From Escherichia coli (lineage in GTDB: Bacteria; Pseudomonadota; Gammaproteobacteria; Enterobacterales; Enterobacteriaceae), in NCBI RefSeq assembly GCF_013122565.1, contig NZ_CP053258.1: a stretch of DNA of 64,000 bases; one strand, written 5' to 3'. A program made the translations under genes and the position numbers. Shown piece after piece: positions 32,879 to 33,163 of this stretch (position 1 is its first letter; the number at the start of each line of letters is the position of its first letter). Below the pieces are notes generated by a model that was given only the letters and a program-made list of their open reading frames with translations, did not search any database and was not told where the DNA came from.

Positions 32879-33163
32879 ACTGCTTTCAGTTGTTGCGTGT
32901 GGCTACGCTTTCCATTCGGTAATTCCCTTCCTGCTCCACAGCGAATTTTTGAACTTTTTTTTCACCCGTTGATCGTCTCTAATATTTCATTTTATCGGGT
33001 CTGTTATGGTCCTTTCTGATTGTTATTCATGGGCTAATTAGCAGTCTGGTTGGCGATGCCCATCTCGGTGATCCGCGTCGTGCACGACGCCTTGCGTCAC
33101 TAGCCTCTTCTCTAGCTCATCATGCAGGTCTTTCTAATTGTGAAATCATCCCACGCTACTGCT

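Follow-up and report, generated by a model that had tools for sequence, protein, structure and literature searches.

The closest described systems to the DNA that separates rluA from espY1 in the Escherichia coli stretch analysed here (64 kb in total, hereafter the window) are the insertion sequence IS50 and the transposon Tn5. The outside end of Tn5 reads CTGACTCTTATACACAAGT (PMC2566895), and arginine 30 of the Tn5 transposase has been functionally characterised, according to the reference that PMC2229646 makes to this work (Twining et al., 2001). For the neighbouring gene espY1 the relevant comparison is the EspY family, for which a WEx5F motif and pentapeptide repeats are described features (PMC6313403).

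The original prediction for this locus concerned a perfect 16-bp palindrome, GCGTCGTGCACGACGC, said to lie in otherwise non-coding DNA downstream of two convergent genes, and it offered three readings of the site, namely as a protein-binding site, as a hairpin or as a piece of some degraded element. In this study, we confirmed the sequence and its symmetry (arms of 8 + 8 nt with zero spacer), and the gene context was also described correctly, with rluA on the plus strand and espY1 on the minus strand (Table 1). The DNA is not otherwise non-coding, since in other E. coli genomes RefSeq annotates a transposase pseudogene remnant that encloses the site. Of the three readings, the degraded element held up, as the site belongs by alignment to the 5' remnant of a dead IS; the protein-binding site and the hairpin did not, because the palindrome is unconserved and its fold is comparable to that of shuffled sequences. 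Very probably, the palindrome is incidental to protein-coding sequence in the fragment of a dead mobile element and has no independent function here. Its location, homology, reading frame and allele frequencies were observed directly, as were the lack of conservation at the DNA level and the ordinary folding energy. A candidate regulatory site is hereby removed, and the 'spacer' between rluA and espY1 is shown to be the fossil of a Tn5-like insertion sequence, a change of status that matters little.

Table 1. Features of the rluA-espY1 region, in window coordinates.
Feature	Position	Strand	Description
rluA	32135-32794	+	Convergent with espY1
IS50/Tn5-like IS4-family 5' remnant, ~354 bp	32829-33182	+	Identified by alignment to longer and intact copies; RefSeq pseudogene
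Left terminal repeat CTGCCTCTTGTACATAAAT	32829-32847	+	Matches intact copies and Tn5 outside end
Hairpin AAATCCCCG/CGGGGATTT immediately internal to the IS end	32844-32873	+	Followed by a T-run; -13.5 kcal/mol, z -2.6
Start of dead transposase ORF (ATG 33006, MVLSDCYSWAN)	33006-33041	+	Premature TAG at 33039-33041
Frame-shifted part encoding the N-terminal DNA-binding domain (..LGDPRRARRLASLASSLAHHAGLS)	33043-33135	+	Pfam PF14706
Palindrome GCGTCGTGCACGACGC	33075-33090		Last base of a Pro codon + Arg-Arg-Ala-Arg-Arg; dead transposase frame
17-bp perfect inverted repeat, 6-nt loop	33161-33200		Truncated end of the remnant; -37 kcal/mol
espY1	33201-33977	-	258-aa pentapeptide-repeat gene; T3SS effector; WEx5F motif

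A Tn5-like remnant between rluA and espY1

The spacer was aligned with more extensive copies of this element from the Nissle 1917 chromosome (L005), from plasmids (L006 and L007) and from Z1323CEC0013 (L001), and with two intact copies (L010 and L011). Homology starts at the terminal repeat (32829) and ends at 33182, which corresponds to about codon 58 of the transposase. The left terminal repeat CTGCCTCTTGTACATAAAT is identical to CTGTCTCTTATACACAAAT of the intact copies at 16 of 19 bases and to the Tn5 outside end at 15 of 19, and the intact copies themselves agree with the Tn5 outside end at 17/19 bases. The right end of the intact copies, AGATCTGATCAAGAGACAG, is presumably the reverse complement of the Tn5 inside end.

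Relatedness was also observed at the protein level. In its third frame, the spacer translates to ...LVGDAHLGDPRRARRLASLASSLAHHAGLS..., and this remnant peptide matches the Pfam family Tnp_DNA_bind (PF14706) with 27.5 bits against a cut-off of 24. The N-terminal ORF of the pseudogene copy in Nissle 1917 matches Tn5 transposase structures in the PDB (E=3.6e-43). Furthermore, LGDPRRTRRLV of this element aligns with LGDPRRTARLV of Tn5, and the residues encoded by the palindrome correspond to P25-R30 of the Tn5 transposase.

Taken feature by feature, the likeness to IS50/Tn5 comprises Tn5-type ends, the LGDPRRT(R/A)RL motif and the Tnp_DNA_bind domain at the transposase N-terminus; in the intact copies it extends to a length of ~1550 bp and to a 457-aa transposase with matches to Tnp_DNA_bind, DDE_Tnp_1 and Dimer_Tnp_Tn5. 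However, the element is a distinct IS, with a transposase that is only roughly half identical to that of Tn5 over the aligned region (as read off the alignment), and the window copy differs from IS50 in that it comprises the first ~354 bp only. The segment is a remnant of an IS50/Tn5-like element of the IS4 family and not a functional IS.

The features of a functional IS were looked for in the window copy and were not found. The DDE domain is missing, and the reading frame is broken by the premature TAG at 33039, at which the intact copies continue open (MVLSDCYSWANEQFGHARLGDPRRTRRL...), and by two frameshifting insertions relative to these copies, one of +4 near 33050-33056 and one of +1 near 33136. 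In addition, the right terminal repeat is missing from the window, which leaves no partner end for a 9-bp target duplication. With these losses, the nonsense codon and the two frameshifts, the window copy cannot transpose. Other copies of any segment of the remnant, including the terminal repeat, are absent elsewhere in the window.

The remnant is already annotated in RefSeq, where the site is named 'transposase DNA-binding-containing protein' or 'IS4/Tn5 family transposase DNA-binding protein' and where the pseudogene is noted as frameshifted with a missing C-terminus. A discussion of it in the literature was not found: publications on yabP, yabQ, EspY1, rluA and djlA contained nothing on the rluA-espY1 spacer and only general EspY background.

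Dyad symmetry as a product of arginine codons

In the dead frame, positions 33073-33090 read CCG CGT CGT GCA CGA CGC and encode P-R-R-A-R-R, and the palindrome falls in the conserved DNA-binding motif LGDPRRTRRL of the transposase N-terminus. Four of its eight base pairs are automatic, because CG is self-complementary and four CGN arginine codons are arranged symmetrically around one codon. The other four pairs are set by the wobble bases and the central codon. Synonymous encodings of the peptide were enumerated and weighted by codon usage, which served as the codon null. For PRRARR, the mode of this distribution is 5-6 pairs, with at least 7 pairs in 12% and all 8 pairs in 1.0% of the encodings; for PRRTRR, the maximum is 7 pairs, reached in 0.8%. 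Runs of CGN arginine codons alone give strong dyad symmetry, and a palindrome found in unannotated DNA should first be checked for dead coding sequence, ahead of any reading as an operator or a hairpin.

A single palindrome of this size is moreover expected by chance in the window. When arms of 8 nt or longer were required, one perfect palindrome was observed, against 1.4 (sd 1.2) expected from 200 dinucleotide-preserving shuffles of the window, and at least one such palindrome occurred in 74% of the shuffled windows; one perfect 16-bp palindrome per 64 kb is thus at chance level. GCGTCGTGCACGACGC is present in a single copy within the window, even if up to two mismatches are allowed. In a genome collection of 298 Gb, chance alone would yield about 70 hits to the bare 16-mer, too many for such hits to be informative. 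Nor is the sequence a REP/BIME-like repeat: it occurs once in the window and, in the median E. coli genome, at a single place. Extra genomic places of the 38-mer that contains the palindrome were, among those listed or inspected, copies of the same IS. In one genome, 31 places match this 38-mer.

Alleles and history of the palindrome

Alleles of the site were counted as exact 38-mer matches in E. coli records. The window-type allele GCGTCGTGCACGACGC, with 8/8 pairs, was present in 482 records (e.g., 042, O145:H28 and ST648); the O157:H7 / O55:H7-type allele GCGTCGTACACGACGC, identical to the sequence of the intact IS copies, has 7/8 pairs and was present in 310; and the K-12-type allele GTGTCCTGCACGACGC, which encodes P-C-P-A-R-R, has 6/8 pairs and was present in 1,108. 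Only a minority of E. coli strains have all eight pairs, and this 482 / 310 / 1,108 split does not show the dyad conservation among locus-carrying strains that would be expected of an operator. In K-12, where the counterpart of espY1 is split into yabP and yabQ, the comparison that had been suggested together with the original prediction was carried out, and it is there that the site, whose equivalent in W3110 lies near coordinate 59,400 (NC_007779.1), reads GTGTCCTGCACGACGC. A known pseudogene remnant in which the palindrome is not conserved had been named as the finding that would speak against a functional site, and exactly this was observed, including the yabP/yabQ region of K-12.

The close intact copies (L010 and L011) also read GCGTCGTACACGACGC, with a central ACA (Thr) codon and 7/8 pairs. 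Five further intact relatives with ~70-74% protein identity encode the same xRRTRR by other synonymous codons, and the number of pairs amounts to 5, 5, 5, 4 and 4 of 8. The R-R-T of the motif is kept by 13/13 intact relatives. Since the same peptide is kept in the five relatives while the dyad stays at the mode of the codon null, selection targets the peptide rather than the symmetry of the DNA.

In the simplest history that we can infer, both for the order of the mutations and for their neutrality, an IS50/Tn5-like IS would have come to lie between rluA and djlA, either along with espY1 or beside it. The IS would then have been truncated at about codon 58 of its transposase and would have gained the nonsense codon and the two frameshifts. 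The wobble bases of this IS lineage may simply have happened to add three pairs to the automatic four, after which, once the copy was dead, a single transition from A to G (ACA, Thr, to GCA, Ala) would have completed the eighth, central pair, and two later substitutions in the lineage to K-12 would have reduced the symmetry to 6/8. The Thr-to-Ala change affects a residue that is invariant in living relatives. The direction of the A/G change is read with paralogous IS copies as the outgroup, and a second copy of the sequence is present in O157:H7 genomes, so that gene conversion could blur the A/G polarity.

The A-to-G change at 33082, the sole step from 7/8 to 8/8, is precisely the one that perfects the symmetry, and a templated mutation, i.e., correction of a quasi-palindrome by template switching, might be proposed in place of a point mutation. 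We consider this origin improbable. If the intact copies are used as the outgroup, one transition is sufficient and no special mechanism is needed, and the changed base sits in the central 4 nt, which are unable to pair in an intrastrand hairpin. An early alignment with L001 as the outgroup had hinted at two coordinated substitutions in one arm, as a template switch might leave; this candidate was dropped because L001 is a chimera, with a 5' part identical to the K-12 remnant and a Nissle-type 3' part, and therefore no outgroup, and because the intact copies show 7/8 to be the ancestral state. A template switch would in any case concern only the origin of the palindrome and would give the site no function.

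The 7/8 of the close intact copies is the maximum for PRRTRR and is reached by only 0.8% of its encodings under the codon null, and the hairpin of an isolated 25-mer folded as DNA is more stable than that of shuffles (z -3.2 and -2.5). Both observations would fit a near-palindrome that is a real cis element of the IS50-like lineage, either a hairpin that tunes translation or a site for the transposase or a host factor, and that was retained in the remnant. We regard this as very unlikely. The 0.8% figure is post hoc, as the site was picked for being palindromic, and the five intact relatives with the same peptide, at 4-5/8, do not rise above the null mode. Folded within 36 nt of sequence, the site is not more stable than shuffled sequences, with z values of -0.36 and -0.24 for the two strands as RNA and of -0.12 as DNA. 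The 8/8 and 7/8 alleles fold alike, into a 6-bp stem with a 4-nt loop (-6.4 kcal/mol as DNA), and the perfecting change adds nothing to the hairpin, because the four bases at the centre are those of the loop. It may be tempting to speculate that the dyad over RRTRR is a fossil regulatory hairpin or self-binding site that damped, for example, translation of the transposase, or that the 8/8 allele was co-opted by a host factor, yet we would give such ideas very little credence. The element is dead at this locus, so that any former role is irrelevant here.

Operator and terminator functions

In length and in its perfect twofold symmetry, the palindrome resembles the 16-20 bp operators of bacterial repressors, and it could accordingly be taken for an operator through which a host transcription factor regulates espY1 or rluA. 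It differs from such operators in that it is not placed at a promoter, is unconserved between strains and is derived from coding sequence, namely from the coding region of the IS. The site is located downstream of both genes, and the number of sigma-70-like promoter sites in 32700-33300 was 0. Most genomes that carry the locus have broken versions of the palindrome, and ~3,350 of 5,426 genomes are without the whole segment. To our knowledge, the palindrome matches no known operator consensus. We consider an operator function extremely unlikely.

Practically no weight is left for a terminator or an RNA-stabilising hairpin of rluA or espY1, for although the palindrome shares with intrinsic terminators and REP sequences the position between two convergent genes and a possible stem of 6 bp with a 4-nt loop, it is single-copy, is no more stable than shuffles, lacks a T-run on either side (the 3' sequence is CTTGCGTCAC), is not among the 4 terminator-like sites and is flanked by two much better candidates, at 32844-32873 (hairpin + T9) and at 33161-33200. 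A search against Rfam yielded no match over 33075-33090 and, in other parts of the spacer, only two that stayed below threshold (18.9 vs 42 bits and 18.1 vs 70 bits).

Hairpins that flank the palindrome

Behind rluA, 50 bp past its stop codon, the hairpin at 32844-32873 is the sole canonical terminator-like site. Its stem is followed by nine T in the window, by TTTTTTGTTT in K-12 and by TTTGTGATG in the intact IS copies. From its position and sequence, rluA appears to use IS-derived DNA as a terminator; strains without the islet described below have REP sequences instead.

The inverted repeat at the truncated end of the remnant reaches its -37 kcal/mol as RNA, with a z of -7.9 on both strands. 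Its left arm is transposase coding sequence of the IS, and other copies read GCTCAGGTTGAAGGTGC at this position; its right arm begins one base past the end of the IS homology and abuts the espY1 stop codon (33201-33203). The structure looks like a fold-back inverted duplication that formed at the truncation point, and it is likely the 3' hairpin of espY1. In E. coli it is single-copy, and the surrounding 58-mer is identical in 2014/2071 genomes. Compared with the remainder of the remnant, this conservation is not significantly higher. We make no claim of selection for it, because ~8-10 common polymorphic sites per 406 bp would give zero sites in 58 bp ~25-30% of the time.

The espY1 islet and other copies of the IS

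Of 5,426 complete E. coli genomes, 2,084 carry the 406-bp rluA-espY1 spacer. In the ~3,350 genomes that lack the islet, for instance ATCC 25922 and p11A, the gap between rluA and djlA measures 117-150 bp and is REP-like. Together, espY1 and the IS remnant form an islet (32795 to about 34270) that is a presence/absence polymorphism (~2,080/5,426 complete E. coli genomes). The islet substitutes for the entire rluA-djlA spacer and reaches the stop codon of djlA and the wobble base of the last djlA codon; this stop codon is TGA with the islet, as in the window, vs TAA in empty-site strains. espY1 is acquired DNA and travels with the IS remnant. In this respect the remnant is like other solo IS remnants that lie beside acquired type III effector genes, and there is nothing unusual in its adjoining espY1.

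Four other E. coli copies of the IS were inspected (L001, L005, L006 and L007), and all are pseudogenes. Their surroundings are mosaic and contain other IS fragments, tRNA-Arg, a type III effector gene of the AvrPphF family or a large gene for a TcdA/TcdB-type toxin, and on plasmids effector or toxin genes adjoin other copies of this IS. The chimeric structure of L001 suggests recombination between IS copies. The intact copies L010 and L011, which derive from metagenome / SRA assemblies, are 1550 bp long, encode the 457-aa transposase P0003 (1,389 member sequences) and have ends nearly identical to the outside and inside ends of Tn5; no IS name was given to them in the sources examined.

A second gene of the EspY family is located at 14684-15520 on the minus strand of the window. 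Its 278-aa product has pentapeptide repeats and a WEx5F motif (WETLRNLF), and over residues 15-205 it shares 39% identity with EspY1.
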